The notes beneath the pieces are model-generated. The model searched no databases and was not told the DNA's origin. It saw only the letters and a program-made list of their open reading frames with translations. Below, in pieces: positions 2,504-43,089 of a DNA stretch of 48,095 bases (its first letter is position 1; every line of letters begins with the position of its first letter). A program made the translations under genes and the position numbers. Source of the stretch: a virus (Duplodnaviria; Caudoviricetes); IMG/VR virus record IMGVR_UViG_3300005764_000025, positions 1 to 48,095 of that record; one strand, given 5' to 3'.

Positions 2504-4552
2504 TTATCGCAGAAATCCGCCGCGCACGGGCCGCAACTGCCCTCCCGGCGCCGGGGAAACCGGGACGCCGGCGGGCATCGGCGCTTCCGGACGAGCGGCC
2601 GGCGGCGTTTCCGGCTTCTCCAGCGGCTCGACGGCGGTTTCGAGCTTCCTCCAGGCCTCTTCCGTGAAGCGGTCGATGCCCACAATCGACGCCGCGCCGC
2701 GGTTATAGACCGCCAGATCGAGCGGCTCGTTGCGCTTGTAGCGCTGTTCGTACTCCACTTTCCCGGCTTCGGTCACGATCCGGACCTCCGCAGTCAGGCC
2801 TTCGAAGTAGACCATGTCGTAGAGCGGGAAGTGGTGGCATCCCGGCGACGGCGAATCGTCCGGATGCGGGAGCGCGTGCCGCAACAGATCGAAGATCTCG
2901 CCCTTCGCGCAGTGCGTGCCGATCCCGATGATGCGGATTCCTTGCCGGCGGCGGGCCGCGTCCTCTTTCGAGATCGATGCGATGATCCGGAGCGCATCCG
3001 GCGTGCCTTTGACCGGGACGATGGTCCGGTGCGCGACGAGCTTGATCCCTCCCGGCCCGTAGTGCAACTGGCGGTGACCAGGCCGGCGCGTGAACTCGTA
3101 CACGGGCTTCGGATTCCGTCCGGTGTCGATGCACATCGCGAGGATCGGCAGGTAATGCCCGCTGGCGTGGAGCCAGTCGCGCTGAAGCAACTCCTCAAGC
3201 TGGTCCCACAACTCCGCGGAAGTGACCGGAAGCTCCTGGCCGTTCGACGCGAACGCCTGCAGAACCCAGTAGCCGATGCTCCAGTTCTCTCTTCCTCGGC
3301 CCCACGCCTTCACTTCGACCTCGAGCCGCGGCGGATGCTCCTGAACGTCAGCCGCCGCCGTCAGGAACAGGCCTCTCTGCGGAATCACCGCCGCATCCCC
3401 GAACGCATACGCCTCGCGCCGCGCAAACAGCTTCTCTTTTTCCGGGGCCTCGCCTTCCTCGACCCATTCCTCCGCGAGAACCGTATTGATGAACGTCTTC
3501 AGGTTCTGCCGGTCATCCTTCGCCGTCAGGAAGTGCCGGGTGATATCGGAGCACCGCTTCCATTGCGGCGGCACGTACAGGTGATTCACCCAGAATCCCG
3601 CCACCTTCCCGTCCGTCAGCGGATTCTCGACGCGCCATTCCACGTCGTTCACGGCCCGCCAGCGCTCCTGTTCCGTCCACGGGCGGTCGCACTTCACGCA
3701 GTGATACCGCGCCGTCGCCGGCCGCATCGATTCCGACACGCTCGAATCCCACTTCACGTGGTAGCCCGTCTTGTCGCGGAACCGCAGGACCTGGCGGAAG
3801 CCGCAATGCGGACACGCGGCATACGGTTTCCTCTGATCGCTCTGCTGATACGCCTTCCCGATCCGGCTCACTCCCGCGACCGTGGGGCTGCACGCCATCA
3901 CGCGCTTCCGCCGGCTCCCATACGTCATGGCGCGTTCCCACGCCAGATCCACGGCATCGCCTTCGCCCTGTCGCTGAACGCTCCCGCCTACATCCTCGCT
4001 GTACTTGTCGATCTCGTCGCACACCAGATAGCGGATCGTATGCTGCGCGAGGTCAATCGGCGTGCGAGCTGAGACGATCAGCAGATTCCCGCCGGGAAAT
4101 TCTTTCGACAGCGTCGTTGACGAACCTTCATGCACACTGTCCGAGAGCTTTCCCTTCAGCGCAGGGCAATCCCGGCTCATCGGCGCGAGTCTCCGTTTGC
4201 TGAACTGAGTCGCCGCGTCCTTCTTCGGCTCCACCAGCAGAATCGGACCCGGATCTGTGACGATCCAATACGCGATCGCGCACATGATCGCGAGACTCTT
4301 CACCAACTGAGTCCCGCTCATGATGATCACCTGTTCGATCGACGGATCGCTGATCGCGTCGAAGATCCCCCTCTGCCAGCCGTAGAGTTGCAGATTGCCC
4401 GTCGCCGCCGAATACTCGGGCGAGAGAACGATGTTCTTCTCGCTCCACTCAGCCAGATTCAGCCATCTGTGAACCTTGAATACTTCGCGGAATTCCTGAA
4501 AGAGAGGCGGTGGATACGGGAAACCGATCTCCTGAAACTCCTCGATCGTCAC
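2504..4552 (-). CDS. terL: Terminase large subunit, GpA family
   Basis: DPGPILLVEP, EFPGG, Walker B YLVCDEID, CSPT, CPHCG...CVKC zinc module, FINTVLAEEW, NEPLDLAVY; GTG start overlaps terS stop (GTGA). Confidence 0.93.
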   Translation of the reverse strand: MTIEEFQEIGFPYPPPLFQEFREVFKVHRWLNLAEWSEKNIVLSPEYSAATGNLQLYGWQRGIFDAISDPSIEQVIIMSGTQLVKSLAIMCAIAYWIVTDPGPILLVEPKKDAATQFSKRRLAPMSRDCPALKGKLSDSVHEGSSTTLSKEFPGGNLLIVSARTPIDLAQHTIRYLVCDEIDKYSEDVGGSVQRQGEGDAVDLAWERAMTYGSRRKRVMACSPTVAGVSRIGKAYQQSDQRKPYAACPHCGFRQVLRFRDKTGYHVKWDSSVSESMRPATARYHCVKCDRPWTEQERWRAVNDVEWRVENPLTDGKVAGFWVNHLYVPPQWKRCSDITRHFLTAKDDRQNLKTFINTVLAEEWVEEGEAPEKEKLFARREAYAFGDAAVIPQRGLFLTAAADVQEHPPRLEVEVKAWGRGRENWSIGYWVLQAFASNGQELPVTSAELWDQLEELLQRDWLHASGHYLPILAMCIDTGRNPKPVYEFTRRPGHRQLHYGPGGIKLVAHRTIVPVKGTPDALRIIASISKEDAARRRQGIRIIGIGTHCAKGEIFDLLRHALPHPDDSPSPGCHHFPLYDMVYFEGLTAEVRIVTEAGKVEYEQRYKRNEPLDLAVYNRGAASIVGIDRFTEEAWRKLETAVEPLEKPETPPAARPEAPMPAGVPVSPAPGGQLRPVRGGFLR

Positions 4553-5142
4553 GCGACCTTCTCTTCTTCCCGGCCTTCGCCCCAGAGTGTCTCCAACTCG
4601 TACAGCTTGTTGAGCACGCTCTCGACCCAAACCTGGAGAATGGCGCCGCACTTCTTCGGATCGTTTTCGAGCGACAACTTGTCCTGTAGCTCGGACGGCC
4701 CTTTCTCAAGCGTGTCCCGACTGGCTTGCAGAAACTTGATCGCCCAGTGCCGCACATAGACCACCGGAACCAGTTCGCTGCGCTTCTGCCTATTCGTGAT
4801 CTCCTGCCCTTCCGCCAGCGCCTTGGCGCGGCGCAATTTCATCGCCTCGGTCTGATCGCGGATACCCTGCAAGCGGAGGAGAGCCTCATATTCGGTCTTC
4901 TCCTCTTCCGTCTCTTCGCCTGTATCCGGCTTCGAAGCGGTCTGCTGCTTCCTCGCCGGCGGCAACGCTTCCGCCATCTCCTGTTTTGCTTTGCTACGGA
5001 TTTTGGCATACGCCCTGATCTGATCCGGCGTCTCACCTTTTCGCATGTGATCGCTGATCGTGGAAGCGGATAATCCCGTCTCCCGCGCCAACGCGCTCAC
5101 GCCCACATTCTCGATCCGTTGCCGCGGCGAACGCTTTCCCAT
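4549..5142 (-). CDS. terS: Terminase small subunit (Nu1-like)
   Basis: N-terminal HTH (VSALARETGLSASTIS), coiled coil and ELVPV motif; coupled to terL. Confidence 0.75.
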   Translation of the reverse strand: MGKRSPRQRIENVGVSALARETGLSASTISDHMRKGETPDQIRAYAKIRSKAKQEMAEALPPARKQQTASKPDTGEETEEEKTEYEALLRLQGIRDQTEAMKLRRAKALAEGQEITNRQKRSELVPVVYVRHWAIKFLQASRDTLEKGPSELQDKLSLENDPKKCGAILQVWVESVLNKLYELETLWGEGREEEKVA

Positions 5143-6074: not shown

Positions 6075-6308
6075 ATGACAACGAGCACGATGTGGGATTC
6101 GAGATGCAAGAGCGGTTACCAGTGGGATACAGGGCGCCGCACACGCCTACTCAAGCGCACGGTTTGGAAACAGTGCAATCAGATGACGGCTCGTGGTGAA
6201 GTCTTATGCCATGACTGCCATGCGCTGTTAGAGGTATCTCTTAGTGCGACTCACAATGCGGCTCACGCCAGCGAAAATATTTTCGTCGTGATCGAGCAAT
6301 TCGCTTGA
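6075..6308 (+). CDS. Hypothetical early protein (77 aa)
   Basis: GGAG SD and GAAC-rich leader; CHDC motif. Confidence 0.6.
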   Translation: MTTSTMWDSRCKSGYQWDTGRRTRLLKRTVWKQCNQMTARGEVLCHDCHALLEVSLSATHNAAHASENIFVVIEQFA

Positions 6309-6333
6309 TTCGTGGCACGAATCATGAGACGAT
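6305..6333 (+). promoter_or_regulatory. Sigma70-type promoter with palindromic operator, copy 1
   Basis: TTGATT-17 nt-GACGAT (TGn extended); perfect palindrome TGATTCGTG-G-CACGAATCA at 6306-6324. Confidence 0.7.
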
Positions 6334-6352: not shown

Positions 6353-7156
6353 ATGAACATGACGAACACGAAAGCAACCACGAAACGCAAGCGCAAGACC
6401 ACGGTCCTGATTCGGCGCCCAAAGGGCTATCGCGCCGTTTTAACTTGCGACAATGCCAAAACGAGCAAGGGTGAAGCGTTAGGCTACCGGACGGGTATCT
6501 GCTATCTGGCGCCTGGAAACGAAAGCGGAGTCATCAATACTTGCACGTATGCCAGCAAGGGTTGTCTTGAGGCTTGCCTATTTCGTGCTGGTAGAGGCGC
6601 CTTTCCAAAGACCATTCGCCAGCGCATTGCAAAGACACTTTTCCTCGTTGAGAATCGCGAGTTGTTCTTAGCTTCGCTTCGCACGGACATTCTCGCCTTG
6701 ATTCGAGATTCAGCCGATATGGGGATGATTCCAGCCGTTCGTATGAATGGCACCTCTGATCTCGCATGGCTAGGAATGCAGATGAGTAAAGAGTTTCCAT
6801 CCGTCATGTTCTATGACTATACGAAGCTTCCGAAACCCTATCTGCGTCAACGAGCCAACTATCGGCTCACGTTCTCTTACTCCGGGCATAACCTCAATGA
6901 TGCATTGGATGCGCTGAAACATGGCGTGAATGTCGCCGTGGTCTTCGATACGCGCAAAGGTCAAGACTTGCCTGTTTCGTGGAACGGGTATCGCGTGATT
7001 GACGGCGACACGCATGATTTGCGTTTTCTGGACACCGAGTCCGTGGTAGTTGGACTCCGTGCCAAAGGGCCAGCCAGGAAACAGGATTCGGCTTTCATTG
7101 TGAAGACTAACGGCACGGCTCCACTGTCGAATCCGTTCGTGGTGCTAGTCGCCTAA
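6353..7156 (+). CDS. Phage GP88-like protein (Fe-S/radical-SAM-like Cys motif)
   Basis: CTYASKGCLEAC, AVRMNGTSD, FYDYTK, LTFSYS, IDGDTHDLRFLD, VVGLRAKG motifs; start at 6353 or 6359, downstream of the promoter. Confidence 0.75.
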   Translation: MNMTNTKATTKRKRKTTVLIRRPKGYRAVLTCDNAKTSKGEALGYRTGICYLAPGNESGVINTCTYASKGCLEACLFRAGRGAFPKTIRQRIAKTLFLVENRELFLASLRTDILALIRDSADMGMIPAVRMNGTSDLAWLGMQMSKEFPSVMFYDYTKLPKPYLRQRANYRLTFSYSGHNLNDALDALKHGVNVAVVFDTRKGQDLPVSWNGYRVIDGDTHDLRFLDTESVVVGLRAKGPARKQDSAFIVKTNGTAPLSNPFVVLVA

Positions 7157-7213
7157 CTCCACTGATGAGCCGTTGCGACCACGGCGAAACGGCGCGAACG
7201 GCGCCGTCTGGAG
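7157..7213 (+). ncRNA. Type I hammerhead ribozyme HH1
   Basis: Stem I CTCCA/TGGAG, core CTGATGA, stem II GCCGT/ACGGC, GAAA, stem III ACGGCGC/GCGCCGT, GUC cleavage after 7208. Confidence 0.95.
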
Positions 7214-7223
7214 ACACCGAAAC

Positions 7224-7508
7224 ATGCACACAACAGACGAACAACGCAAAAGCCTTCAGCCATACGCATGGCCTGGAGGTTATCCCGTCATGTATATGGC
7301 TGTAGGTGGCTGGCGTGATGAGGAAACGGGAAAACTGGAGGTCAATGACCGTGAAGAGTTCGTCTGTTGCGCGAAGTGTGCGGTTGATACTCAACAATGG
7401 CCTGATTTGGTGATTATCGGTCACTACGTCCACTATGAAGGTCCTCCTGAAGAGTGCGAGTACTGTAATTCGTTCACGGAGTCCGCATACGGCGACCCAA
7501 ACGAGTAA
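7224..7508 (+). CDS. Small phage protein with YAWPGGYP motif and CxxC pairs (94 aa)
   Basis: ATG 7224, about 10 nt after the GGAG in HH1 stem I; TAA abuts HH2. Confidence 0.8.
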   Translation: MHTTDEQRKSLQPYAWPGGYPVMYMAVGGWRDEETGKLEVNDREEFVCCAKCAVDTQQWPDLVIIGHYVHYEGPPEECEYCNSFTESAYGDPNE

Positions 7509-7564
7509 CTCCACTGATGAGCCGTGGCGCGGCGAAACGAGCGGCCAATCCGTTCGTCTTGAAG
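7509..7564 (+). ncRNA. Type I hammerhead ribozyme HH2 (stem I mismatched)
   Basis: CTGATGA, stem II GCCG/CGGC, GAAA, stem III ACGAGCGG/CCGTTCGT, GUC cleavage after 7558; stem I is CTCCA versus TTGAA, only 3 of 5 pairs. Confidence 0.8.
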
Positions 7565-7574
7565 GTATCGAATT

Positions 7575-7778
7575 TTGAAGGTATACGGTGAAACACTCCG
7601 TGAATTGACCACGGACGAATTGAACGCGCTACGCAAGTACGCCAGCATTCACGGTCGCAATTGGAAGTCCGCACTCCGTGACCAGTGGGAACGTGCAAGC
7701 GCCATAGGCCCGTTGCATGCGCTCCGCAATTCGCATGGGCCTACATGGCTGGTCCGTTTCCGCTTGCCTAAAGCGTAA
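7575..7778 (+). CDS. Small phage protein (67 aa)
   Basis: TTG start after GAAGGT; YA..HGRNWKSAL...W...LRNSHGPTWL motif recalled from phage proteins; TAA abuts HH3. Confidence 0.75.
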   Translation: MKVYGETLRELTTDELNALRKYASIHGRNWKSALRDQWERASAIGPLHALRNSHGPTWLVRFRLPKA

Positions 7779-7839
7779 CTCCACTGAAGAGCCATTGAAA
7801 CACTGGCGAAACGGCGCGGCGGTATCGCGCCGTATGGAG
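7779..7839 (+). ncRNA. Type I hammerhead ribozyme HH3
   Basis: Stem I CTCCA/TGGAG, core CTGAAGA, stem II GCCA/TGGC, GAAA, stem III ACGGCGCG/CGCGCCGT, GUA cleavage after 7834. Confidence 0.93.
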
Positions 7840-7847
7840 GAAACGGA

Positions 7848-8028
7848 TTGACGCTCCAAAAGGCAATCGAGTATGCGCAGTTTTGCGCGAACACTTCGAA
7901 GCGGCTCACTCCGCACGAAGCTTATGAGATCCGTATCGCGCCATGAAGTTTACGGGTACGGTGGCGCCATGCATCGTAGTTACGCTTTGCGCACCTTGCG
8001 TGATGCGATAGAGCGGAGTGCGCAATGA
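7848..8028 (+). pseudogene. Small gene apparently split by a frameshift
   Basis: TTG 7848 after GGAGG gives 32 aa (stop 7944-7946); the +1 frame (ATG 7924 to TGA 8028) continues and ends overlapping the next ATG. Confidence 0.4.
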
Positions 8029-8243
8029 AGGCGCCGTCTATCGTCCGTCAGATTGTAGGCCGCTGTCATGTTGGACAATCAGACCGTGCCGTGACCCGGT
8101 ACTTCGTGTCCCGTTTGAAGCGAGGATACGCCACGTGGCACGCCATACCGCGCCACGAACGGCGCCAATGGCTCCAATGGGTGATAGCGGCTCATGCGGA
8201 CAATCGGCGCCTGTATCGCGCCGTCATGAGCGGGCGCCTGTAG
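8025..8243 (+). CDS. Basic hypothetical protein (72 aa)
   Basis: GGAG SD and ATGA overlap; Arg-rich. Confidence 0.65.
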   Translation: MKAPSIVRQIVGRCHVGQSDRAVTRYFVSRLKRGYATWHAIPRHERRQWLQWVIAAHADNRRLYRAVMSGRL

Positions 8244-8413
8244 GCTCGAATCGGACACTGGCGTGAGAATGCGTCAAGAGAAATTTTCGCCGTGTTTTCA
8301 ATGGGTTGACTTAGAGCGCACGATAGGGCGGTTCGATCCCCCGGAAACGGGCTTAAGCCCAATGCGCTGTAAGGGTTAGGCTCAAACCAGCCGCCGGCCG
8401 ACACTTTGACGAG

Positions 8414-8550
8414 GTGCGTTACGGGTAGCGCCCGAAAACCTGGCGTGTGTCTGGACGTTGTAGGCCCGTGGGGGGCTTTTTGCGGGCCTGGAAAATCGGG
8501 CTGGCCGTTTCCTCGAAAAAGGAGGGCCGGAAAAGAAAGTCGAAAAAAAG
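8414..8550 (+). repeat. GTAGG-N7-GGGGCTTTTT repeat, copy A
   Basis: Core at 8460-8481, then AAAATCGG and phased A-tracts. Confidence 0.8.
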
Positions 8551-8553
8551 ATC

Positions 8554-8582
8554 TTGATTCGTGCCACGAATCATGAGACGAT
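8554..8582 (+). promoter_or_regulatory. Sigma70-type promoter with palindromic operator, copy 2
   Basis: TTGATT-17 nt-GACGAT; TGATTCGTG-C-CACGAATCA at 8555-8573; near-identical to copy 1. Confidence 0.7.
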
Positions 8583-11373: not shown

Positions 11374-11402
11374 TTGCTTTGTGTCACGAATCAAGATAGG
11401 AT
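11374..11402 (+). promoter_or_regulatory. Sigma70-type promoter with degenerate operator, copy 3
   Basis: TTGCTT-17 nt-TAGGAT; keeps the CACGAATCA half-site. Confidence 0.7.
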
Positions 11403-31023: not shown

Positions 31024-31464
31024 GTGCCAGCGAACCTTGCAGCCGCATCGGTTGCCCCCGGCGCCGTATTACCGCAGTCTCTGAGCACGTCCTATGTCGA
31101 GATGTGGTCCTATCCCATTCTCGGGGTGAACTACAATGACGGGACCAACGAGCGTTCGCTGATTCAGGACGGCGTCAATCCGCCGCTTCCGCTGCGCACC
31201 TGGACGCTGGCAAGACGGCTGACCACGGCGCAATTGAACACGCTCCTGAACTTCTGGCGGAACACAACGAAGGGCGGTTTGAACCCGTTCTACTATTACG
31301 ATCCTTTCGACGTGCTTCCCGGTCACCAGCACGGGAGCAATTACGATCCGGCCGGCAACAATTCGCAAGGCCGCGTGATCTGCTTTTTCCGGGGCGATTG
31401 GGGCCACCATACCGAACTCGGAAGGCACGTAGTGCCGAACCTTCTGCTTGTCGAGGTCCGCTGA
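31024..31464 (+). CDS. Distal tail (Dit/gpM-like) protein
   Basis: RTWTL...LLNFW....GGLNPFYYYDP; directly after the tape measure. Confidence 0.65.
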   Translation: MPANLAAASVAPGAVLPQSLSTSYVEMWSYPILGVNYNDGTNERSLIQDGVNPPLPLRTWTLARRLTTAQLNTLLNFWRNTTKGGLNPFYYYDPFDVLPGHQHGSNYDPAGNNSQGRVICFFRGDWGHHTELGRHVVPNLLLVEVR

Positions 31465-34400
31465 TGGCGGATAGCATTGGTCGCATCCCGGTTCCGACTC
31501 CGACACCATCGAATCTCGTCTTCGGCCAGCGGGCCGATGGGTCGATGATGCGTAGCGAGTATGGCTACGGCATGACGCAGGATTGGAAAGTCATCGAGCA
31601 TCGGTTCGGTGAGCTCGCGACTCTCGGCACTCAGCGCTACGGCATCGGTAGCGGCGCGCGCCACTTTCAATACGTGAAGAGTTCGCTCTCCTACATGGAC
31701 CGCGACTACCTGCAGAATTTCTACAATGCCGTGCAAGGCTCGTATCAGAGCTTCCTCTATCCGGTCCCGAACCCGGATCGGCAGACGTTCACGAACTACC
31801 GCGTCATCTTCGACGCGCCGCCGCTCTCGGTGACCGATCTGTCGAATCGCTGCCAGACCGGCATGACGTTTATCGAGGTCATCGATCCTGCTTCAGTGAA
31901 CCCGTTGAACGTAACGAGCTACTGCACGCGCTTCCCCTCAAGCGCTCTCCAAACCGCCCTTGCCTCGCAAGTCCAGATCATCGTCCCGCTCGTACATATC
32001 AAAGTCCGCAATACCGCCGTGCCGGATATCTGGCTCTCCGACCGCCGCATCATTCTCAACGGCGTTCCGAACGCTCCCAGCCAGGTCACCTACCTGCCGC
32101 GGCTTCTCTCCGTGGGCGTGCCTGGAACCAACGACGTGATCATGTCGCAGTCCATCGATGGGCGGAGCGACAACGTGCGTTTCGTTTTCGGCAATGCGGA
32201 TCGCGTGATGGCGAAGCTGGTGAACGACTGTTCTCTCGAATTCGCGGAGATCGATCTTTGCCTCTATCACGTGAATTCGGGCATCCTGCTACAGCTTTGG
32301 CAGGGAATCATTCTCTCCTGGCAACTCGACGGCTCGGCGCAGTTCTCGATCCAATGTTCGGACGGCCTCTATCCGATCACGCAATCCTATCCGCGGCGTG
32401 TGATCAGCCGGCAATGCTGGAAACCGTTCAACCAGGACACGGTTCCCGGCTTCCGCCCGTGTCCGTGGTCTACCGCCGGCGGCGGCAAGGGCAATCCATC
32501 GAGTTGCGATTACTTCTACAACTCGACCAACGGATGCCTCTCGCACGGCATGAGCAATTATTTTGGCGGGCATCCGGAGCAGCCGCAGAGCGTTGTGATC
32601 AAGGATCAGGGCGGGATGCACATCATGGGATTCGGGCGCGACTGGGTGACTGCGACCTCGATTCTCTCGGACTCGATCTGGGGCAAGCCGCTGGCCGAGA
32701 TCTGGTGCAATGACGGCGGCACGCCGCAGAGAGCTTACTGGTCGAACTGTGATATCGCCGCCGTGCGCGAGGAGTCCGACTATTACGACATTCTCGGGAT
32801 CGTGGGCGCCGGTCCCATTGGCGCTTATGAAGGCATGTCTGTGCAGACGAATGCGGATGGATACAAATTCATCGTCGCGCCCACCGCAGACGGCTTTCAT
32901 CCGCAGGGATTCGAGACGGACTCCGATCTGAATATCACGGGCTACCATCCCACGCTGGGCTTGCGGCAATCGGTTGGCTACGATCCCGCAATGCTCGGGG
33001 CCGATCCGACTCAAGGCGTGGACGCTTTCTCGCTGGGCGCTGGAAGCCCGCAGAGGTGGGATCTGCCGGATGCGAACTATTCCAATTGCGGCGTGCCCAA
33101 CCGGATCATTCCCTATGCGGCCGGCACGGCGGTGTGCGAGATCCGGTATCCCAAATCCGCCGGCCAGGGCGTCACACCCACCACGGCGGAATCGCACAAC
33201 ATGCAAGTGCCCATCTCCAAGGGCCTGTACGGTTCGACCTTCGATCCCGCCGGAACGCGCACCTATGCCCCCGGCGTCACGAATCCGTTCTGGGTCGCGG
33301 CGAACACGTATCTCCGCGCTCTGGGAATCGACCATGCCGATCCCGCCACGCAACTGCGGTATTTGCTGCTCGATTCGCTCACACGCTCGGACGGCATGGG
33401 ATGCGCCGATATCGCGGACCTCTGGGTCGATCCCCTCGTGCATGGCCCGGTGATGTACACCTACGACATAAGCCCCACGGGCGCGGCGCTCACCAGTTTC
33501 AACCTCGACCACAACAACAATACTTTCTCCTGGCAGGACTCCACCGGAAAAACCCAGACGATTCCGGTCTACGATGCGATCCAGGCCGGGTATGTCTCGA
33601 TCGTCTCCCAACCGGACAAGGAGCGCCAGTTTCAATTCCAGGGTCAGCTCGCGGACTTCAAGCCCTTCCGCGATTGGTTGACCGAGATCCTCAATTGCGC
33701 TCTCGGTTATTTCTGTTTCGAATTCGGAAAGCTGAAGCTCGGCATCCGCTATTCCGCGGTCCCGGTGGACACCTATGGACTCGGCTCGATGCTCTACCAG
33801 TCGCTGAATCTGGCGCCCATCTCGAGCACCTTCGAATACCTGAAGCTGACGTTCGCGAATGTGGCGCTCCAATATCAGCAAGATCTTGCGGAGTATCAGG
33901 ACAAGGACCACGCCGCCTACTATGGCCGCGCCGGCGCTCCGCTGACTTCCTCGATGCGTTCCGTGGGAACGGCTTCGCTCTCGCAAGCGCTGCGCGTGGC
34001 CGTGAGCCGCACACGGGAGGAGATCGGCGGCATCCTGCGGACGGATCAATCGAATCCGTACATCGAGTGGGATAACAACAAGCGGGCGGAATTCAAGACC
34101 ACGCTCCTCGGCCTGTCGAACGAGATCGGACAGGTCATCTCCATCACGCATCCGGATCTGCCCACCTATCCCGGCGCCCATCCCGGCTCCCGTCCCGGCA
34201 GCAACGGCCCGTTCCAGGCGAACACCTGGCCGTTCCGCATCAAACGCTACATGCTCCATTCCGACTGGAGCGTCACCATTCAGGCGGATTCATGCGTCGA
34301 TTCGATGTATGACCTGGAAGTGGGGCCGCAACCTGTAGGCGCGGTCCCGCAACCGCTTCCGGTCCTGTTCTACCCGGAGCCGCTCGGCCAATGGGCGCCA

Positions 34401-35678
34401 TATCAGGTCAGGTATGCGTTAACGGATGCGCTCTATCCCGGCGATCCCGGCGATGCGCTCTATCCCGGCGAATACACCTTTGACCTCGCGCAGAGCTACT
34501 CCTACCGCGCCGATGGCACGCTGATGACGTTCGCCGTGCTTTCCGGCAAGCTTCCGTGCAATCTGTTCATCCCGAATTGCGGCGCCGTGGGCGTGAAGAA
34601 GGGCAATATCACGCGCTCCAGCACGGGCGGCTCGATCCCCGGCGGGACCACGCTCTATGCCCAAGTCTGCGCCGTGGATGCGACCGGACGCTACAGCCCT
34701 CCCTCGGAGGTCCTCGTCCTCAAAGTTCCGGTGGGCACGGATACCAATACGATCACGCTCAATGGGATTCAGTGGCCGGCGTTCACGGGCCTCACCGGAT
34801 GGGTCCTCTTCGCCAGCGACACGGAAGACCTGATCTGCGGTCAGGCAAACGGCACGGGCCAGCCGGCGTCGATCACGCTCACCGGGCCGCTCCAGCGGTC
34901 CACCTATGCGGTTCCCGATTTCGATCTGATGACGCTCCGCTTGCGAGCTCAGGTGCTCATCCACGGCGGCGTCATCGGCGCTCCGGTGACCGGAACGACG
35001 GACTCGATGATCATCTCTTCCGATTGCGTGGATGCCGCCGGGACCGACGATTGGACCGGCCGCGTGCTCACGATCATCGGGCGGCAACTGGGCGACGGGC
35101 GTGCGCCATATCGCAACTTCAATATTCGTGGCTTCGATCCGACCAATGGCGAATTCAGCGTGGACTGCAATCCGGAAGCGGCCGGCGTTCAGGTGGGCGA
35201 CGTGTTCGTGGTCTGCATCAAGGGCGTGGACAATTCTGCGAATCCATATGTGGTGAGCGATCCAGGCCTGAGCAATGCGACCAACATTCCGCCGCACACC
35301 GGAGAAGCGCTTAACGATCCCACCAGAGTGGGCCAGATCGTGCGCGTGATCGCCGGCAAGAGCCGCGGGATGCAGGCGAAAATCATATCGAACGGCGCGA
35401 CCGATTACACGCTCGATCAGCCGCTTCCGATTGATGCGACCTCGATCTGGATCGTCACGGACCACGGCTGGGCGTATTCTAAGAACATTCCGGTTACCAA
35501 CGCTGACCCGACCCAGATGACGATCTCGGCGCTCGAGATCGACAACTTCCTGGGCATCTCTCTACTGATCGAGGGGATCACCATCGATGAAGAAGCCATC
35601 GAGGTGGACGACACCAACGCATGTGTGAGGATGCTTTACATCCCCGGCGTGCAGGGCACGAACACGGTAGCGACGTAG
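31464..35678 (+). CDS. Tail tip/hub protein (fused gpM/gpL/gpJ-like domains)
   Basis: TGATG coupling; C..C..C..C cluster (RQCW...CPW...SCD...GC) like the gpL Fe-S motif; TNPFW and GKLKL segments. Confidence 0.75.
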   Translation: MADSIGRIPVPTPTPSNLVFGQRADGSMMRSEYGYGMTQDWKVIEHRFGELATLGTQRYGIGSGARHFQYVKSSLSYMDRDYLQNFYNAVQGSYQSFLYPVPNPDRQTFTNYRVIFDAPPLSVTDLSNRCQTGMTFIEVIDPASVNPLNVTSYCTRFPSSALQTALASQVQIIVPLVHIKVRNTAVPDIWLSDRRIILNGVPNAPSQVTYLPRLLSVGVPGTNDVIMSQSIDGRSDNVRFVFGNADRVMAKLVNDCSLEFAEIDLCLYHVNSGILLQLWQGIILSWQLDGSAQFSIQCSDGLYPITQSYPRRVISRQCWKPFNQDTVPGFRPCPWSTAGGGKGNPSSCDYFYNSTNGCLSHGMSNYFGGHPEQPQSVVIKDQGGMHIMGFGRDWVTATSILSDSIWGKPLAEIWCNDGGTPQRAYWSNCDIAAVREESDYYDILGIVGAGPIGAYEGMSVQTNADGYKFIVAPTADGFHPQGFETDSDLNITGYHPTLGLRQSVGYDPAMLGADPTQGVDAFSLGAGSPQRWDLPDANYSNCGVPNRIIPYAAGTAVCEIRYPKSAGQGVTPTTAESHNMQVPISKGLYGSTFDPAGTRTYAPGVTNPFWVAANTYLRALGIDHADPATQLRYLLLDSLTRSDGMGCADIADLWVDPLVHGPVMYTYDISPTGAALTSFNLDHNNNTFSWQDSTGKTQTIPVYDAIQAGYVSIVSQPDKERQFQFQGQLADFKPFRDWLTEILNCALGYFCFEFGKLKLGIRYSAVPVDTYGLGSMLYQSLNLAPISSTFEYLKLTFANVALQYQQDLAEYQDKDHAAYYGRAGAPLTSSMRSVGTASLSQALRVAVSRTREEIGGILRTDQSNPYIEWDNNKRAEFKTTLLGLSNEIGQVISITHPDLPTYPGAHPGSRPGSNGPFQANTWPFRIKRYMLHSDWSVTIQADSCVDSMYDLEVGPQPVGAVPQPLPVLFYPEPLGQWAPYQVRYALTDALYPGDPGDALYPGEYTFDLAQSYSYRADGTLMTFAVLSGKLPCNLFIPNCGAVGVKKGNITRSSTGGSIPGGTTLYAQVCAVDATGRYSPPSEVLVLKVPVGTDTNTITLNGIQWPAFTGLTGWVLFASDTEDLICGQANGTGQPASITLTGPLQRSTYAVPDFDLMTLRLRAQVLIHGGVIGAPVTGTTDSMIISSDCVDAAGTDDWTGRVLTIIGRQLGDGRAPYRNFNIRGFDPTNGEFSVDCNPEAAGVQVGDVFVVCIKGVDNSANPYVVSDPGLSNATNIPPHTGEALNDPTRVGQIVRVIAGKSRGMQAKIISNGATDYTLDQPLPIDATSIWIVTDHGWAYSKNIPVTNADPTQMTISALEIDNFLGISLLIEGITIDEEAIEVDDTNACVRMLYIPGVQGTNTVAT

Positions 35679-35679
35679 T

Positions 35680-38600
35680 ATGCCGCTCGACTACACTTTT
35701 CGCAAGATCGACCGGCTGATCCGATTCGACACCACGAATCAGGGCGCCGTCGCGACTCTATTGCCGTTCGCGCAGACGCCGAACCAGGAATTCGAAGTTC
35801 AGAAGATTTCCGCTGACACGAACACGGTTATCGTTCAGGTCGATCCCACTACGAGCGATTTCTTTCCCGGCAATACCTCAAGCGTCACGCTCACGGACAA
35901 TACGACGAACTACATGGTCCGAATCAAAATCCCCGGCGATGGTAGTTCGCCAGCTCTGGTGACCGGAGGGCTTCCCGGCGGATCAGTTCCTCCACCGCCC
36001 GCCGCCTTTCCTGAACCGCCGCCCGTGACGATCGGGGATAGCTGGTCCGGTGAGACGGAGGACGAGCAGATCGAATGCGTAGTGAAGTGGATACCGGATG
36101 CCACCGCCACGGTGGACAATTTCTCGGGCCTGAAGATCTACGTCGAAGACCCGGATATCTCCGACAAGGGCAACGCGCCGCTCGACGGCACTACGCCGCT
36201 CGACGGCACGAGCGGCAAAGCCGGAACCTGGAACCCGGTTCGATTTGCCGACAATGATGAATCGCCGGTCGATATTACGATTCCCGGCAAACCTGTCTGG
36301 CGACCCGTTCGCATCTATCTGCTCTCCTATAGTCCCAACAAGACCGCGAAGTTCGTACAGGCTAACAGACCGAGTCCGACGCCTAGCGTGCGTCTCGGCA
36401 TCGGCGGCGTAATCGGGGAATACGTCAGCGGCGCCGAACATGCGTGGCTCGTGACCAACGTTTCCGCTACGGATACGGACAACTTTGACGATCCCGCCGG
36501 CCCTACGTATCATCTCGATTTCAGTTATGACAAGCCGGATTCCTCCATCCCCCTGCCGAAGGGGCTGAAGCCGTTCGGCGGCGTCCAGATCACTTACGAA
36601 TACGATGATGGGAGCCGTGAACAGGGGCCGTTCCTGCCGGTCGATAAGCAGGAGGAGTGGCACACCAAGCAGATCGCAATCGGCTCCACGCAGCACTACA
36701 TCGTCTGGTTTCGCTCCGTAGATATCGACAGTAACGTCAATACCATCGTCAAAGGCCTCACGCCATCCGTGGAAGTGACGGTCATCTATCCGCCCGCGGG
36801 ACAGGCGACCACGCCGGATGTGACGGGTTTTGCGCTCTCGAATTACCGTCACGAAGTGGAAGCAGACGGCACGGATTTTGCGCTGGCGGATCTGACATGG
36901 ACGCCGCCTGACAGCGTGCGCTTCGCATCCGTTTCGTTCTATCGCGTCGATCAGCAGCCGCCGCGCCTCTTTCCTCCGAGTCCTCTGCCAGCGAATGTCA
37001 CTCACACCACGCTCTGGGTCAACGACTGGCCGAAGACCACGCAACCGTGGACGATCGCCGCGATCTCGACGGACTACAACGGCAAGATGAGCGCGGACCC
37101 GACGAAACCGTTACCAGCTCGCGTGCCAACGGTCGTCTGGAATATCGGGCCACCGGGGCTTGGCTCGACCGGCGGCGAATACACCACGTTTGTGGGGATC
37201 GCCGGCGTCACCATCGTCACGGAGCAGCAGATGAGCAACGATGGCGTACAACTGATGCGCCATCACATCAAGGGGTGGACGAATCCCACGGACAATTCAT
37301 TCGGGGGCGTCAGCATTGCGCGAGTGATCGCAGGAACGCTCTCTGATTCCTCGCTCGCCGGCACGGGACCGAAATATTGGGACGCCGCCAAGAGCGACAC
37401 CAGTCTCGACACCGAATGGGAAGCGGCGCCGGGAGCGCGTTCGTGGGACTTCTATTTCGTCTCACGCGACATGGCCGGCCACAAGAACACGATCCTCCCC
37501 GGCGTCACGCCACGCATCACGCATCCCTTCACGCCAATACCGGGACAGATCGTGCCTTCGCGCCTGCCTAGCGGATGGTGGAACGAAGACGAGTTCTCCT
37601 GGCCGTCGCAGACCGATCCGGCGGTGGACTTCAGCGTGAAGGCCATCGTGTCTCCCAAGATTTTCGTAGGCTCGATCCTGCGCGTAGGCGGCGGCAACAT
37701 TTCCGATACGGGAACGGCAGATAAACCAGGATACGTGCCGGGAACCAAACCCAGTTTCGGCGCCGCCCAGAACGGCCAGATCGCGGTTTACAACAACGCG
37801 AACGTGCTTCGCGCCTGGATGGGCCAGCAGGATCACACGACACCGCCAGCCGAAAGTTCCCCGCGGTCTGTGTATGGCGGTTGGTTTGCGGAACTCTATG
37901 TGGGCGGCAACGGTCCTGACACCGCGCCGATTTACGCGAATCAAGCAGGAACCGTGATTGTTGGCGGCTGGGATGTGAAAGGCTCCAGCTACCCGTACAT
38001 CAGCATTCGCGACAATACCAACCTGGAAGTCGGACGCATGGGCGCGAAGGTCGCGCAAGGCGTGCCGGGAGTGGGGCCGGAAGCGGTGAATCTGGCTGGC
38101 GCCTGGTTCCAGCAATTGGGCATCGGAGGGCAAAACCTTGCGGACTGGCGCATCCTGGCCCGCTATGATTCGACCGTCGCCGGCAACAACAACGTGAGTC
38201 TGCGCCAGATCAACAAATTCACGATCGATTATCAGCAGAACTACCCGTCGAGCACGAATCCCACAAACTACCCGGTGCATCTCGAATACGGCTATGACGC
38301 CTTTGTGGCGGAAGCGGCGAATACTTCCTACTGGAAACATCCCGGCATCAGCCTGAGCGATAGCAACAAGCCAAACCAAAAACTCGCCATTATCACACGC
38401 GGCATCATCGCCTACGGGCCTGATGGCTACCGCAAGTGCGCCATCTACGCCTGGAACGGCGACCAGTTCGGCTCCGACAGCGGATCGCAGTGGTGGGGCG
38501 AGATGACGCTCTATTCAACCTCGAATAATCCCGTGGTCCTGATCTCCGCGAACGACGGCGGTCACGCGAACAGTAGCTACCTGAAGATGTACGACAGCAC

Positions 38601-39171
38601 GGCCAGCCCTTCCGGCCTCAACTTTTCTGTGGATGGCGTGGGAAACGTCTTTGTGCGCGGCGGTCTTCAGGTAGGCGGAGCGCTCCAACTCACCGGCCCA
38701 TCTGCGTCATTCTCCGTGGTGGGTCCGATTTCCGGAACGAGTTTCACGGCCATCGGCGGCGGCGCTCTTGTGGGCGGTTCGCTCAACGTGGGATCGGGAA
38801 ATATCACATGCGGCAACGTCAACGCCGCCGGCTATACCATTGCCTGCTACCAGATCAATGCCACTAATCGGTTTCAGGGCGGCGACTTCTATGGATCGAA
38901 TGTCAACGTCTCCACGGTCACGTCGAGTGGGCTGGTCAAGGGCAGCAGTTTCGCCACGAGCAGTCTGACAGTCATCGACACGAGCGGCAATTTTGTAGGC
39001 AACAGTGTCGATATCGGGACCGGCATCATTCGGGCAGGAACGTATCGGGCTTTCATCGGAGGGATCACCTATAATCCCGTGAATTACGATTCCTTTATGA
39101 CCGGAGACGGGAGATACGTTCATGTGCGGGCAGGAATCATCGTCAAAATCGGGGATGCGACTCCCCCATAA
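35680..39171 (+). CDS. Tail fibre / host-specificity protein
   Basis: 1163 aa; FN3-like repeats and Gly/Asn/Ser-rich beta C-terminus. Confidence 0.7.
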   Translation: MPLDYTFRKIDRLIRFDTTNQGAVATLLPFAQTPNQEFEVQKISADTNTVIVQVDPTTSDFFPGNTSSVTLTDNTTNYMVRIKIPGDGSSPALVTGGLPGGSVPPPPAAFPEPPPVTIGDSWSGETEDEQIECVVKWIPDATATVDNFSGLKIYVEDPDISDKGNAPLDGTTPLDGTSGKAGTWNPVRFADNDESPVDITIPGKPVWRPVRIYLLSYSPNKTAKFVQANRPSPTPSVRLGIGGVIGEYVSGAEHAWLVTNVSATDTDNFDDPAGPTYHLDFSYDKPDSSIPLPKGLKPFGGVQITYEYDDGSREQGPFLPVDKQEEWHTKQIAIGSTQHYIVWFRSVDIDSNVNTIVKGLTPSVEVTVIYPPAGQATTPDVTGFALSNYRHEVEADGTDFALADLTWTPPDSVRFASVSFYRVDQQPPRLFPPSPLPANVTHTTLWVNDWPKTTQPWTIAAISTDYNGKMSADPTKPLPARVPTVVWNIGPPGLGSTGGEYTTFVGIAGVTIVTEQQMSNDGVQLMRHHIKGWTNPTDNSFGGVSIARVIAGTLSDSSLAGTGPKYWDAAKSDTSLDTEWEAAPGARSWDFYFVSRDMAGHKNTILPGVTPRITHPFTPIPGQIVPSRLPSGWWNEDEFSWPSQTDPAVDFSVKAIVSPKIFVGSILRVGGGNISDTGTADKPGYVPGTKPSFGAAQNGQIAVYNNANVLRAWMGQQDHTTPPAESSPRSVYGGWFAELYVGGNGPDTAPIYANQAGTVIVGGWDVKGSSYPYISIRDNTNLEVGRMGAKVAQGVPGVGPEAVNLAGAWFQQLGIGGQNLADWRILARYDSTVAGNNNVSLRQINKFTIDYQQNYPSSTNPTNYPVHLEYGYDAFVAEAANTSYWKHPGISLSDSNKPNQKLAIITRGIIAYGPDGYRKCAIYAWNGDQFGSDSGSQWWGEMTLYSTSNNPVVLISANDGGHANSSYLKMYDSTASPSGLNFSVDGVGNVFVRGGLQVGGALQLTGPSASFSVVGPISGTSFTAIGGGALVGGSLNVGSGNITCGNVNAAGYTIACYQINATNRFQGGDFYGSNVNVSTVTSSGLVKGSSFATSSLTVIDTSGNFVGNSVDIGTGIIRAGTYRAFIGGITYNPVNYDSFMTGDGRYVHVRAGIIVKIGDATPP

Positions 39172-39180
39172 AGGAGAACC

Positions 39181-39489
39181 ATGCAAAAAGCATTTTCACT
39201 ACAACCGAATGAACTTCAGCAGAGTCAGGCGCTCGAAAGCGAACGGCTCGAGCTTTTGGCGCAACTCGGCTCGATGCAACTTGAGAACGAGCGCATCCGC
39301 GCACGGCTCCCGCAAGTGATCGAACTACAGAGAAAACTGGTGCAAGGGGCGGTTCAGCGCCTCGGCATTGAGCGGTATAACGTGGCGCATATCGACCGGA
39401 CCAACGTGATCGTGGACCTTCCGGACGAGCAAGCGTCTCTTCCGACAACTGATGAGAACGCGCACCCCAATGGCGTAGCGAAACTGTAG
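39181..39489 (+). CDS. Coiled-coil fibre-associated protein
   Basis: AAGGAG SD; Gln/Leu-rich. Confidence 0.65.
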   Translation: MQKAFSLQPNELQQSQALESERLELLAQLGSMQLENERIRARLPQVIELQRKLVQGAVQRLGIERYNVAHIDRTNVIVDLPDEQASLPTTDENAHPNGVAKL

Positions 39490-39498
39490 GAGGTTCCC

Positions 39499-42400
39499 GT
39501 GCCCCCAACGAGCAAAGTCGTCTCGACCACGCCGCGGGCAACTCCCACCAGCACGAGTTGGCTCTCGCGCATCGATTTCGCGCCCAGCGATTACCTCCAT
39601 GCGAATGACCTGAACTCTTTAGGCCTGGACATTAGAAACTGGGGCGGCGACGTGAATGCCGGCGGCTATCGGCTCACCAACGTGGTGTTCGATGGCTCGG
39701 GCTCATTCCAGTACTACACAAGCCCCGTCGAGATCACGCCGGGAACGGATTCGCAATCGATCACACAATACGCCGCTGCGGGCTCACCGAATCCCGTAGT
39801 CCGCTGGAGCGCAGGCAAGGACGCCACTGCCGAGAGCGGCAGCAATGCGGGCAGCAACTATGCCATCAGCCGCTACTCGGACACGGGCGTTCTCATTGAC
39901 AAGCCGCTCTCGATCGATCGCGCTTCCGGCGTCATCTCGCTCGGCCAGCAACTCTGGACTGCCCCGATCAACGGCAACGGCCAGACCCTCAACAACGTGG
40001 TAATCCCCGGCGTGCTCACCGATCCGACCTCCGCCAAAGGTGAAATGCTCGCGCGCGGCGCCACCGCACTGATGAAGGTCCCGGTTGGGGTGGACGGCTA
40101 CGCTCTCTTTGCCGATTCGAGCCAACCGATGGGCGTGCGCTGGGCGCCGAATACCGGAGCGGTGAGTTCGGTATTCGGGCGAACCGGGGCCGTTGTCGCG
40201 ACCGCCGGCGATTATACCGCGGCGCAGATCACCAATGCCATCTCATCGGCGCTCTCCTACGCGGACCCGGCCTGGATCACCAGTCTCGCCTGGTCGAAGA
40301 TCGCGGGCGCCCCCAGCTTTGCTCTGTCCGCAACCCATGTATTCGCCGGCGCTGGCATGAGTGGCGGTGGCCCCATCAGCGCGGACGTGACACTCAACGC
40401 GAACGTGACGACCGTCTTTGGGCGAACAGGCGATGTGGTTTTGACCTCGGGCGATCTCGCTGGCGCGGGCGGCGTCCCTTCAACCCGACAGGTGATTGCC
40501 GGGGCCGGCATGACTGGCGGCGGCGCGCTCTCCGCGGATGTGACGCTGAATGCGGCAGTGACCTCTGTATTCGGGCGAACCGGCGCGGTCACACTGACCA
40601 GCACGGATATCACCACGGCAGGCGGCGTGCCCACAACGCGCACACTGACTGCCGGAACCGGCCTCACGGGCGGCGGCGATCTGAGCGCGAACCGGAGCTT
40701 CGCGGTAGTCGATGACACCACTACCCAGAAGATCCGCGCGAGCCAGAACGGAACCTTCGCCGCGAATCGGCGCGAGATCAACTTTATCGCCGGCTCGAAT
40801 ATTTCGATCAGCGTGAGCGATATTGCGGCAAACAACCGCATGGACGTGTCGATCTCGGCTTCCGGCGGCGTCTCGCCGGGGCCAATCGATCCGACGACCA
40901 CATTGGGCGACATGATTGTCCGCAGTTCGACGGCGCTTTCGCGACTTCCCGTGGGAACGGACGGCCAGGTTGTAACCGCCGATTCTACTCAGCCACTGGG
41001 CGTGCGCTGGGCAGTTCCTACCACCGGGATGAGCCAGAGTCCGTGGGTGAGCGATATCGATGCGGCAGGCCATTCGCTAGGTAATGTTGGCTCGATTACT
41101 GCGAGCGGTTTGATTAAATCCACGAGCGGCGGCATCGGCTTTCCGGATGCCACCATCCAGATGACGGCTGGCGTGCTTCCCTCGCGACAAGTGATTGCCG
41201 GCAGCGGTATGACCGGCGGCGGCGCACTCACAGCAGATGTGACGCTCAACGCCGCCGTAATATCAGTCTTTGGGCGAACCGGCACGGTCACATTGACCTC
41301 TGCGGATATCACAGCAGCCGGCGGCGTGCCTTCAACCCGCCAAGTCCTCGCTGGCAGCGGTATGACCGGCGGCGGCGCGTTGACTGCCGATGTAACGCTC
41401 TCGGCCAACGTGACGAGCGTATTCGGACGAACCGGCGCAGTAGTCCTGACCACGGGCGATATTACCGGCGCTGGCGGCATGGTAGACCCGACCACGACAA
41501 AGGGCGATCTGATCTCGCGAAGCTCAAGTGCCGTCTCACGATTGCCGATCAGCGCCACTGATGGACAGGTCCTGACTGTTGATTCAACGCAGACCTTGGG
41601 GATGAAGTGGGCCACCCCTGCAGCCCAACCACAAACACCGTGGACTGTCGATCATGATGCGGCTGGATACCGGCTGATTAATACCGGCAATGTCGGTCTG
41701 GGAACCTCCTCGCCTACGGCGCGACTTACCGTCAGCACAAATGCGGCTACGCTTCCAGGGCCACCGTCTGGAACCGTTGTGCATGTCGGCGCAATCGACT
41801 CGGGAACGCCGCGCATCGTGCTCGACGGGTTCGGCGGCATCCCCACGTTCGCGGCCCGCATGGCACTCGGGACGGCGGCGTCACCGTCCGCTGTTACGTC
41901 TGGGCTCACGCTCGGGATATTCGGCGCTCTGGGGCGCGGCTCTGCGACTTATGCGACCTCAAGTCGCGGCCACATGAGCGTGTTCGCGGCGGAAAACTGG
42001 AGCGATAGCGTACAGGGGACGTATCTCACGTTTTCGACGACGGCGGCTACGACGTTGACCACTACGGAGAAAATGCGGATCACGGATGCGGGCAACGTGG
42101 GGATCGGAACAAGTATAGCGCCGACTGGGTTTCCCCAAACGGGCACATCCTATCTCACGGTGAAGGGTTCCACGACCTTTGGCGCACTTGAAATGATGAC
42201 GGGAGAGGCAGACGCGGATGGTTCTGTGATCGGCGCTCTAACTTTTACAGATCCGGTTAACAACCAGACCGATAAGCGCCTTGCTCTTATTGTTGGATCA
42301 CGAAGCGGATCTGCGGCTAATAATCGGGGCAGTGTCCTTAGCTTCCATACGCGGGCAGACGGCACAGCCGCTGTGTCGGAGCGGATGCGGATTAGCAACA

Positions 42401-43089
42401 CGGGCTTGGTTGGTATCAACAACAACGGTCCAGGGCGTCTACTCCATGTGCTTGGCTCGGGAACCGCTTCAACCGCCAACCAGATCACAATGCAAGGTTA
42501 TCGGGCGGCATTTGAACTGATGAACGCTGCGGCGAACCAAAACTACTATTTCGGTATCGATGACGCGGACGCAAGCAAGCTGAAGATTGGCATCGGTTAC
42601 TCGGTGAATCAGGGGCTTATACCGACTATTACGATGACTCCCGGACAGCCCGGCAATGTTGGAATCGGCGTTTCGCCGTCTTACAGGCTCGATATCTCGG
42701 GCGATGTGAACATTACGGGGACCTATCGTGTCAACGGCGCGGCGCTTGCGACGGGCGGCGGCGCGATCTCGTTTGCCAATTCGCGGAATCGCGCCACATC
42801 TGGTTACGGCGGCGATGGCACAGGAAACTGGGATGCGGCTTTTCAGAATGTCACCGGAAAGTGGCTATGGCTTGCGATTAGCGCATCCATGACCAATAAC
42901 GGATCGTTGAAATTGTTGGTAGGGGCCGGAAGCGCTCCTGACGCAAACACCGATCTCGTGAGTTGGTTCACGGCGCCTACGGCCTATGGCATCACAGTCT
43001 CGCTATTCGCGTGGGTGCCCCCGAATTACTACTATCGGCTTTTGCAAGGCAATGGTGGGAGTGTTTTCAGTTGGCGGGAATTTTGGTAG
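39499..43089 (+). CDS. Long tail fibre with internal repeats
   Basis: Repeated VTSVFGRTG, AG.GMTGGG.L, DPTT.KGD, GNVGIGT and MRI motifs. Confidence 0.85.
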   Translation: MPPTSKVVSTTPRATPTSTSWLSRIDFAPSDYLHANDLNSLGLDIRNWGGDVNAGGYRLTNVVFDGSGSFQYYTSPVEITPGTDSQSITQYAAAGSPNPVVRWSAGKDATAESGSNAGSNYAISRYSDTGVLIDKPLSIDRASGVISLGQQLWTAPINGNGQTLNNVVIPGVLTDPTSAKGEMLARGATALMKVPVGVDGYALFADSSQPMGVRWAPNTGAVSSVFGRTGAVVATAGDYTAAQITNAISSALSYADPAWITSLAWSKIAGAPSFALSATHVFAGAGMSGGGPISADVTLNANVTTVFGRTGDVVLTSGDLAGAGGVPSTRQVIAGAGMTGGGALSADVTLNAAVTSVFGRTGAVTLTSTDITTAGGVPTTRTLTAGTGLTGGGDLSANRSFAVVDDTTTQKIRASQNGTFAANRREINFIAGSNISISVSDIAANNRMDVSISASGGVSPGPIDPTTTLGDMIVRSSTALSRLPVGTDGQVVTADSTQPLGVRWAVPTTGMSQSPWVSDIDAAGHSLGNVGSITASGLIKSTSGGIGFPDATIQMTAGVLPSRQVIAGSGMTGGGALTADVTLNAAVISVFGRTGTVTLTSADITAAGGVPSTRQVLAGSGMTGGGALTADVTLSANVTSVFGRTGAVVLTTGDITGAGGMVDPTTTKGDLISRSSSAVSRLPISATDGQVLTVDSTQTLGMKWATPAAQPQTPWTVDHDAAGYRLINTGNVGLGTSSPTARLTVSTNAATLPGPPSGTVVHVGAIDSGTPRIVLDGFGGIPTFAARMALGTAASPSAVTSGLTLGIFGALGRGSATYATSSRGHMSVFAAENWSDSVQGTYLTFSTTAATTLTTTEKMRITDAGNVGIGTSIAPTGFPQTGTSYLTVKGSTTFGALEMMTGEADADGSVIGALTFTDPVNNQTDKRLALIVGSRSGSAANNRGSVLSFHTRADGTAAVSERMRISNTGLVGINNNGPGRLLHVLGSGTASTANQITMQGYRAAFELMNAAANQNYYFGIDDADASKLKIGIGYSVNQGLIPTITMTPGQPGNVGIGVSPSYRLDISGDVNITGTYRVNGAALATGGGAISFANSRNRATSGYGGDGTGNWDAAFQNVTGKWLWLAISASMTNNGSLKLLVGAGSAPDANTDLVSWFTAPTAYGITVSLFAWVPPNYYYRLLQGNGGSVFSWREFW

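Follow-up and report, generated by a model that had tools for sequence, protein, structure and literature searches.

Tandem type I hammerhead ribozymes between small genes of a tailed phage, with Shine-Dalgarno sequences placed in stem I

Introduction

What do ribozymes do when several of them stand in a row between the small genes of a phage? Prophage hammerheads are known, as an earlier note on the DNA described here also said; they flank one gene or a short block of genes at a time, an arrangement first described by Perreault et al. (2011, PMC3088659). Three triple arrays were tested in that work and all expected cuts were seen in vitro, for one array also in E. coli (PMC3088659). The role of the ribozymes between small genes of bacteria and phages, which number thousands of copies, is described as still open (PMC6765202, PMC6155905).

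The locus lies in a 48,095-nucleotide stretch of viral DNA (IMG/VR record IMGVR_UViG_3300005764_000025), called the window throughout. The window comes from a tailed phage, and its record is 68% complete; it has a lambda-type terminase and portal, protease, capsid and tail genes. The sequencing runs in which it occurs carry the label soil metagenome, and no RNA run is among those listed. Three hammerheads, HH1, HH2 and HH3, alternate in it with small genes (Table 1). The array is an ordinary example of the layout published in 2011. The best explanation, with a probability of roughly 0.55, is that HH1 and HH3 cut their own RNA, which would split the message and expose the Shine-Dalgarno sequence (SD) of the next gene.

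Table 1. Features of the hammerhead array and its surroundings in the window
Feature	Position	Strand	Remarks
Putative promoter upstream of GP88	6305..6333	+	palindromic operator-like core; repeat; promoter role inferred
GP88-family gene (PF17338)	6353..7156	+	ATG 6353 or 6359; TAA 7154-7156 abuts HH1 stem I; Pfam E 3.6e-36
Candidate pseudoknot partner of HH1 loop II	7148..7152	+	GUCGC vs loop GCGAC; within last GP88 codons
HH1, type I hammerhead	7157..7213	+	predicted cut after 7208; stem I CUCCA/UGGAG; 48.6 bits
orfA, 94 aa, unnamed phage family	7224..7508	+	GGAG ends 10 nt before ATG; 89 matches including own record
HH2, type I hammerhead	7509..7563	+	predicted cut after 7558; core and stems II/III intact, stem I broken; 30.3 bits
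orfB leader	7559..7584	+	10-nt direct duplication (7559, 7575); weak GAAGG SD; TTG start
orfB, 67 aa, unnamed family with HGRNWKS	7575..7778	+	TAA abuts HH3; 5 homologues besides itself
HH3, type I hammerhead	7779..7839	+	CUGAAGA, GUA triplet; predicted cut after 7834; 32.9 bits
Candidate orfC, 32 aa	7848..7946	+	TTG start 7 nt after GGAGG; gene status unproven
orfD, 72 aa	8025..8243	+	sub-threshold OmdA match, E 0.0027; no hammerhead before orfD

The three hammerhead motifs

With the type I core consensus as in PMC3088659 (CUGANGA ... GAAA ... UH), three complete cores are found in the window, beginning at 7162, 7514 and 7784. The residues C3 U4 G5 A6 N7 G8 A9, G12 A13 A14 A15 and U16 H17 are present in each, and TAACTCCA lies directly 5' of each core. 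Stem II has 5, 5 and 4 bp in HH1, HH2 and HH3, and stem III has 6, 7 and 8 bp (A15.1-U16.1 excluded). In both stems the sequences differ and the pairing is kept, as the earlier note had observed. Stems II and III are closed and paired beside the core in all three motifs and stem I is open, the type I arrangement. Each repeat opens with a TAA that ends the gene before it, namely GP88 at HH1, orfA at HH2 and orfB at HH3; this stop codon stands 5 nt 5' of the core each time. The predicted cuts follow the triplets GUC, GUC and GUA and would release pieces of 350 and 276 nt.

A covariance model trained on 46 hammerheads from other viral contigs, the E-values of which are rough, matched all three motifs. 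The next-best match of this search in the window scored 12.8 bits; thus no fourth type I hammerhead was found, and a script candidate at 15000 had no match to the model. No such motif occurred on the one strand searched of 100 simulated 48-kb sequences with the same dinucleotide make-up. The claim of three type I hammerheads at these positions is thus borne out by complete cores, model matches and simulation. The Rfam search that had been proposed as a check did not confirm it: HH1-HH3 were unmatched at gathering thresholds, and below threshold there were weak Hammerhead_3 matches to HH1 (E 3.6) and HH3 (E 6.5) only. The motifs share the catalytic core and three-way junction with Rfam clan CL00010 (Hammerhead_3, RF00008, and relatives), but they fall below all its gathering thresholds, with 19-20 bits against 48.5 for RF00008, and the matches are aligned in the wrong permutation.

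Stem I of HH1 and HH3 has 5/5 pairs with a predicted probability of 0.72-0.99. HH1 does not take the hammerhead shape in its local minimum-energy fold, and its stems II/III have a probability of ~0.27 in a fold computed without a pseudoknot. The candidate pseudoknot of HH1 loop II has 5 bp and a duplex energy of -8.1 kcal/mol. Equivalents of 4 bp are seen at the GP88-terminal hammerheads of two related phages described below (GTCC/GGAC in G001, ATCC/GGAT in G002). Such short matches are common, and the indication from all three is weak. No loop II partner was found close by for HH2 or HH3.

Genes of the array

Each interval of the window holds one small ORF, as had been claimed, and both of these, orfA and orfB, have homologues. 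The GP88 protein of the window is 55-57% identical to the GP88 proteins inside the four-hammerhead arrays of G001 and G002. Its best match among named phages is an Acidobacteria phage at 48.6%, too weak to name a host.

orfA carries the motifs WPGGYP, CxxC, YEGPPxxCxxC and SAYG with four invariant cysteines, and it is predicted to bind zinc. Its structure model is confident (pLDDT 93.8) and had no match among PDB folds at E<=0.001; in the Atlas its matches are unnamed, and zinc-ribbon families appear only below 0.9. Searches against Pfam and PHROG gave no family for orfA, nor for candidate orfC. The orfA family is widespread in phages, with 201 viral stretches confirmed; a metagenome scan with orfA returned the window's own record only. 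orfD is likely the last gene of the unit before a promoter-like repeat at 8554.

HH2 as a damaged copy

Read in register, stem I of HH2 is A-U, CxU, C-G, U-A, CxA, or 3/5 pairs (CUCCA vs UUGAA), and its pairing probability is ~0. For comparison, viral contigs were scanned with a pattern blind to stem I. This gave 127 stretches from 2/64 parts of the collection (the whole is estimated to hold ~4700), and a structure filter kept 77 of the 127 loci with 102 distinct type I motifs. Stem I is complete (5/5) in 94 of these 102 and 4/5 in the other 8; none has fewer pairs.

The damage coincides with a 10-nt duplication of the orfB start, which takes in the post-cut arm of HH2 where HH1 and HH3 have UGGAG. 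An assembly artefact is unlikely, a second assembly of the same sample agreeing letter for letter: a 10-kb contig from it, not independent of the first, is identical over 6900-8100. In sequencing runs X3 and X4, HH1 and HH2 had no coverage.

HH2 is thus likely a decayed copy that would cut slowly or not at all. The mismatch nearest the core is at the second pair, and the pair 1.1-2.1 is intact. Werner and Uhlenbeck are said to have reported in 1995 that the innermost stem I pair counts most for catalysis; this pair is intact, so HH2 may cleave slowly. All three cuts named in the earlier note are predicted at its positions, but the one after 7558 is doubtful because stem I is broken. Likewise the 350-nt and 276-nt RNAs with one gene each have lengths that fit the predicted cuts, but both depend on the damaged HH2. 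If HH2 does not cut, orfA and orfB would likely stay together on one 626-nt two-gene RNA.

Shine-Dalgarno sequences within stem I

In HH1 the UGGAG directly after the cut is both the 3' arm of stem I and the SD of orfA. HH3 has UGGAGG directly after the cut, again as the 3' arm of stem I, placed before the start of candidate orfC. HH2, unlike these two, has no SD paired in stem I.

Scanning for hammerheads that carry GGAG close to the cut site gave 118 stretches and, from these, 52 structured motifs in 34 loci; the GGAG class was defined by GGAG among the first 6 nt that follow the cut. Of the 29 motifs whose stem I arm contains GGAG, 20 have an ATG at 9-19 nt from the cut that opens an ORF of at least 30 codons, against 2/23 other hammerheads in the same loci and 7/103 in the sample blind to stem I. 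Merged by contig by hand, the counts are 10/16 for GGAG in stem I and 7/103 for the blind sample (p 1e-6). Thus the SD is paired in a ribozyme stem at a working start distance in HH1, in HH3 and in these 20 of 29 from other contigs, and the remaining 9/29 have no ATG at SD distance. In the blind sample most genes begin 19-42 nt beyond the cut, and their SD is not part of the stem.

The layout of stop codon, cut and ribosome binding site (stop-cut-RBS) is seen in at least 10 other viral contigs. A group of 17 members with the SD in stem I, three of them from the window, has 95% of cells paired and double changes in 10/14 pairs. Covariation spans all three stems, the counts being inflated by related sequences; the double changes include A-U to C-G at 2.1-1.1 with GGAG kept. 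From these comparisons of sequence, stop-cut-RBS is a recurrent subtype of the known array layout, and the array described here belongs to it. GGAG reads as a working ribosome binding site where it is present; selection for gating is conjectural. GGAG in stem I is rare, found in 1/102 unbiased phage hammerheads where ~1.2 are expected by chance. Most arrays therefore work without SD masking, and the arrangement may be simple compaction.

Folding predicts that cutting raises the accessibility of GGAG from 0.01 to 0.40 in HH1 and from 0.00-0.44 to 0.49-0.95 in the eight G001/G002 copies. The SD of HH3 is predicted to stay paired after the cut (0.04 to 0.08), apparently with a CUCCA inside orfC. 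The folding models thus favour cleavage-raised translation for HH1 and for G001/G002, not for HH3.

Related phages and turnover of the genes

G001 and G002 are complete related GP88 phages with terminases 34-35% identical to that of the window. Each has four hammerheads, all of the form TAACUCCC-core-GUA/GGGAG-ATG and homogenised within each phage. One of them directly follows the GP88 stop codon, as HH1 does in the window. GP88 is all that the two phages share with the small-gene region of the window. A 66-aa gene lies between two hammerhead copies in G001 and is missing from G002. A 79-aa gene lies between two copies in G002, where G001 has an unrelated 84-aa gene; since no hammerhead follows the latter, one G001 interval holds three ORFs. 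The survey of related phages suggested in the earlier note thus found four-copy arrays with variable cargo, but one gene per interval is no rule.

A script scan of loci with homologues of the cargo genes found hammerheads at 0/80 orfA, 0/8 orfB and 0/19 GP88 loci (0/107 together); the 19 GP88 loci exclude G001 and G002, whose arrays do hold GP88. The covariance model, applied to 98 of the 107, also found none. A fixed link between ribozyme and cargo is rejected by these counts. Together with the gene differences between G001 and G002, the hammerhead-free homologues point to the ribozyme as a portable spacer with turnover of its cargo. Named phages gave no DNA match to HH1. A scan of genome contigs gave 119 stretches; one passed the stem II/III filter, lacked stem I and was treated as chance.

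Two further observations concern the relatives. One viral contig (G004:C1:19564-28034, locus L527) has eleven type I hammerheads in 8.5 kb; stem I includes the SD in several of them, and stem II has 2 bp in some. In G001 the first hammerhead is preceded by a 285-aa gene with an SGGKDS motif (L524, 9094-9951), which may encode a PAPS-reductase-type protein; G002 has a 74-aa hydrophobic ORF there.

Function of the array

By the preferred explanation, a phage transcript from the promoter-like repeat at 6305 would fold HH1 and HH3, which would cleave themselves after 7208 and 7834 and give short messages. Stem I, with its 5 bp and about -5 to -7 kcal/mol, would then come apart and unmask the SD. 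The product would be a 5'-OH RNA that starts U-GGAG and whose translation need not depend on the gene before it. As a repeat, the ribozyme sequence likely doubles as a crossover point for the gain and loss of gene cassettes.

RNase III processes T7 early mRNA. As in T7, a polycistronic message would be cut between genes; unlike T7, no host enzyme would take part, the predicted ends are 5'-OH and 2',3'-cyclic phosphate, and early timing is by analogy only. Protein-free processing of the small-gene transcript by tandem hammerheads, which the earlier note had proposed, is the best reading and is partly supported; it is also the published one, the layout having been described before (PMC3088659).

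A more elaborate version, possible though tentative, would combine three things: a translation switch gated by cleavage, in which a 57-nt stop-ribozyme-RBS module keeps genes silent until cut, an exchange point for cassettes, and a 350-nt coding circle closed by the HH2 arm and the HH1 end. Less likely than the preferred explanation is a simpler scheme in which the cuts only set the stability of the pieces, a compact spacer is all that brings the SD into stem I, and cleavage is so fast and constitutive that masking is never limiting. The chance-level frequency of an SD in stem I agrees with this scheme, as do the later, unpaired SDs and gene starts of most phage hammerheads. In addition, a 5' UTR ribozyme with a free SD leaves expression unchanged (Felletti et al., PMC5052635). 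Against it are the compensatory changes that keep the layout in several unrelated arrays and the predicted burial of the SD in uncut RNA, but both are weak objections that fit compaction too.

An improbable variant assigns the unmasking to the ribosome: on ending at the TAA it would melt the anti-SD arm, and cleavage would act mainly on untranslated RNA as a switch or decay signal. The nearness of the stop codon in HH1-HH3, and within 12 nt in 22/29 SD-type hammerheads, fits this variant, but a nearby stop is also found in 49/103 hammerheads without an SD in stem I. When the upstream arm is occluded or removed in folding, as by a terminating ribosome, GGAG is freed about as well as by cutting. 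Coupling of this kind could do without a catalytic core, but the cores are perfect. It is hardly credible that the repeats matter mainly as DNA, as short boundaries at which cassettes recombine, and that their ribozyme activity is a relic. Cassette gain and loss at the repeats with homogenisation within each phage, as in G001 and G002, and the absence of hammerheads from the cargo homologues elsewhere would suit such a role, but stems II and III diverge and stay paired, which points to selection on RNA structure and not on DNA identity.

If self-cleavage of HH1 and HH3 does gate translation, a dead core should give less downstream protein with no drop in mRNA, a loss that an opened stem I should make good. 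The SD-in-stem-I subtype thus gives a sharp prediction within reach of a plain reporter. Eight intact copies occur naturally in G001 and G002, and HH2 could serve as a natural control for loss of pairing.

Circular RNAs

The earlier note also called coding circular RNAs possible, with the cut ends as RtcB substrates; the pieces would be ligated by the ribozyme itself or by RtcB. In one variant the 5' arm of HH2 and the UGGAG freed by HH1 would close a 350-nt orfA circle. The free 5' end of the linear 7209-7558 piece is predicted to pair with the HH2 arm with a probability of 0.66-0.91, which would rebuild a perfect stem I. The same pairing of ends is 0.00 in the 276-nt piece and 0.27-0.37 in the 626-nt piece, and the circle requires the doubtful HH2 cut. 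Circular folds of the cut pieces are only ~65% paired.

In other arrays stem I is fully cross-compatible in 19/26 adjacent pairs, from 14 loci, against 3.6% between arrays. The non-circle direction is about as often compatible (17/26). In a per-locus test on 13 loci, one near-duplicate being dropped, stem I did not significantly exceed either stem III (p 0.42) or stem II (p 0.06). With no significant excess at stem I, duplication and homogenisation explain the cross-compatibility, and selection for a circle-compatible stem I is unsupported. No RtcB was found in the window's record (68% complete) or in four further viral records that have arrays (0/5); a host could possibly supply it. The circle idea had been raised for the published arrays, where spliced or circular products were looked for and none is reported as detected (PMC3088659). 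Coding circles are thus very improbable and the suggestion is left unsupported, with no RtcB in the five records, no end pairing in the 276-nt piece and no significant excess at stem I.

Comparison with known systems

The published arrays of Clostridium scindens, Azorhizobium caulinodans and Agrobacterium tumefaciens likewise have three same-strand hammerheads between small variable phage genes. Gene-length mRNA processing was proposed for them, and a type I member has a loop II pseudoknot (PMC3088659). The features of these clustered arrays (same-strand hammerheads, a phage genome, inconstant cargo) are found in the window. Unlike the published arrays, the window's has a damaged middle copy, carries GP88 and two unnamed families where the cargo there includes ardA, and places the next gene's SD in the stem I 3' arm; the word "Shine" is absent from the main text and searchable supplements of PMC3088659.

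Masking of the SD by ribozymes is an engineered design (PMC5052635, PMC12192606). The hammerhead and twister switches of this kind (Wieland and Hartig 2008, as described in PMC5052635) likewise hold the SD in a ribozyme stem and free it by self-cleavage; cleavage raises expression, 5- to ~100-fold for twister constructs (PMC5052635). HH1 and HH3 differ in being natural and free of an aptamer, in lying between cistrons and not in a 5' UTR, and in having 5 bp with an adjoining stop codon; their effect is a predicted one. In a search of mainly the open literature no description of a natural SD within stem I of a hammerhead came up, and members may be present but unremarked in published alignments. 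The stop-cut-RBS variant with a natural SD in stem I thus appears to be unpublished, and in sequence it resembles the engineered SD-masking aptazymes. Retrozymes and viroid-like circles also have two hammerheads in direct orientation that bound a ligatable unit (PMC6155905, PMC6765202). The units of the window differ from these as they are described, being protein-coding cassettes of a dsDNA phage that are not identical to one another, with circle geometry in the 350-nt piece only.

Phage context

Promoter-like copies at 6305-6333, 8554-8582 and 11374-11402 head blocks of small ORFs. Those at 6305 and 8554 have the palindromic core TGATTCGTG-2 nt-CACGAATCA; a sigma-70 consensus scan did not pick the element at 6305. 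The repeats are likely phage promoters bound by a repressor. Between orfD and the next promoter-like repeat, 8244-8553 is a 310-nt ORF-poor, GC-rich segment with long predicted hairpins and no Rfam or tRNA match. A tRNA/tmRNA search of the window found none.

About 2 kb separate the array from the start of terS, and the records of two cultured phages have GP88 homologues close to their left end. By analogy alone, the array would fit an early module, which the earlier note had put as a putative first-entry region. The small-gene region is placed between the lambda-type terminase genes (2504-5142, minus strand) and a portal-protease-capsid block on the opposite strand, which begins at 17302 (plus strand), ~12 kb off. 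In G002 the array and terL share a strand, with the array upstream. The tail region of the window (31398-43089) encodes three consecutive proteins of 1160-1430 aa, two of them without a PHROG match. The contig end has a Mu Gam-like gene (46454-47107) and a ParB-like gene (47256-48089).
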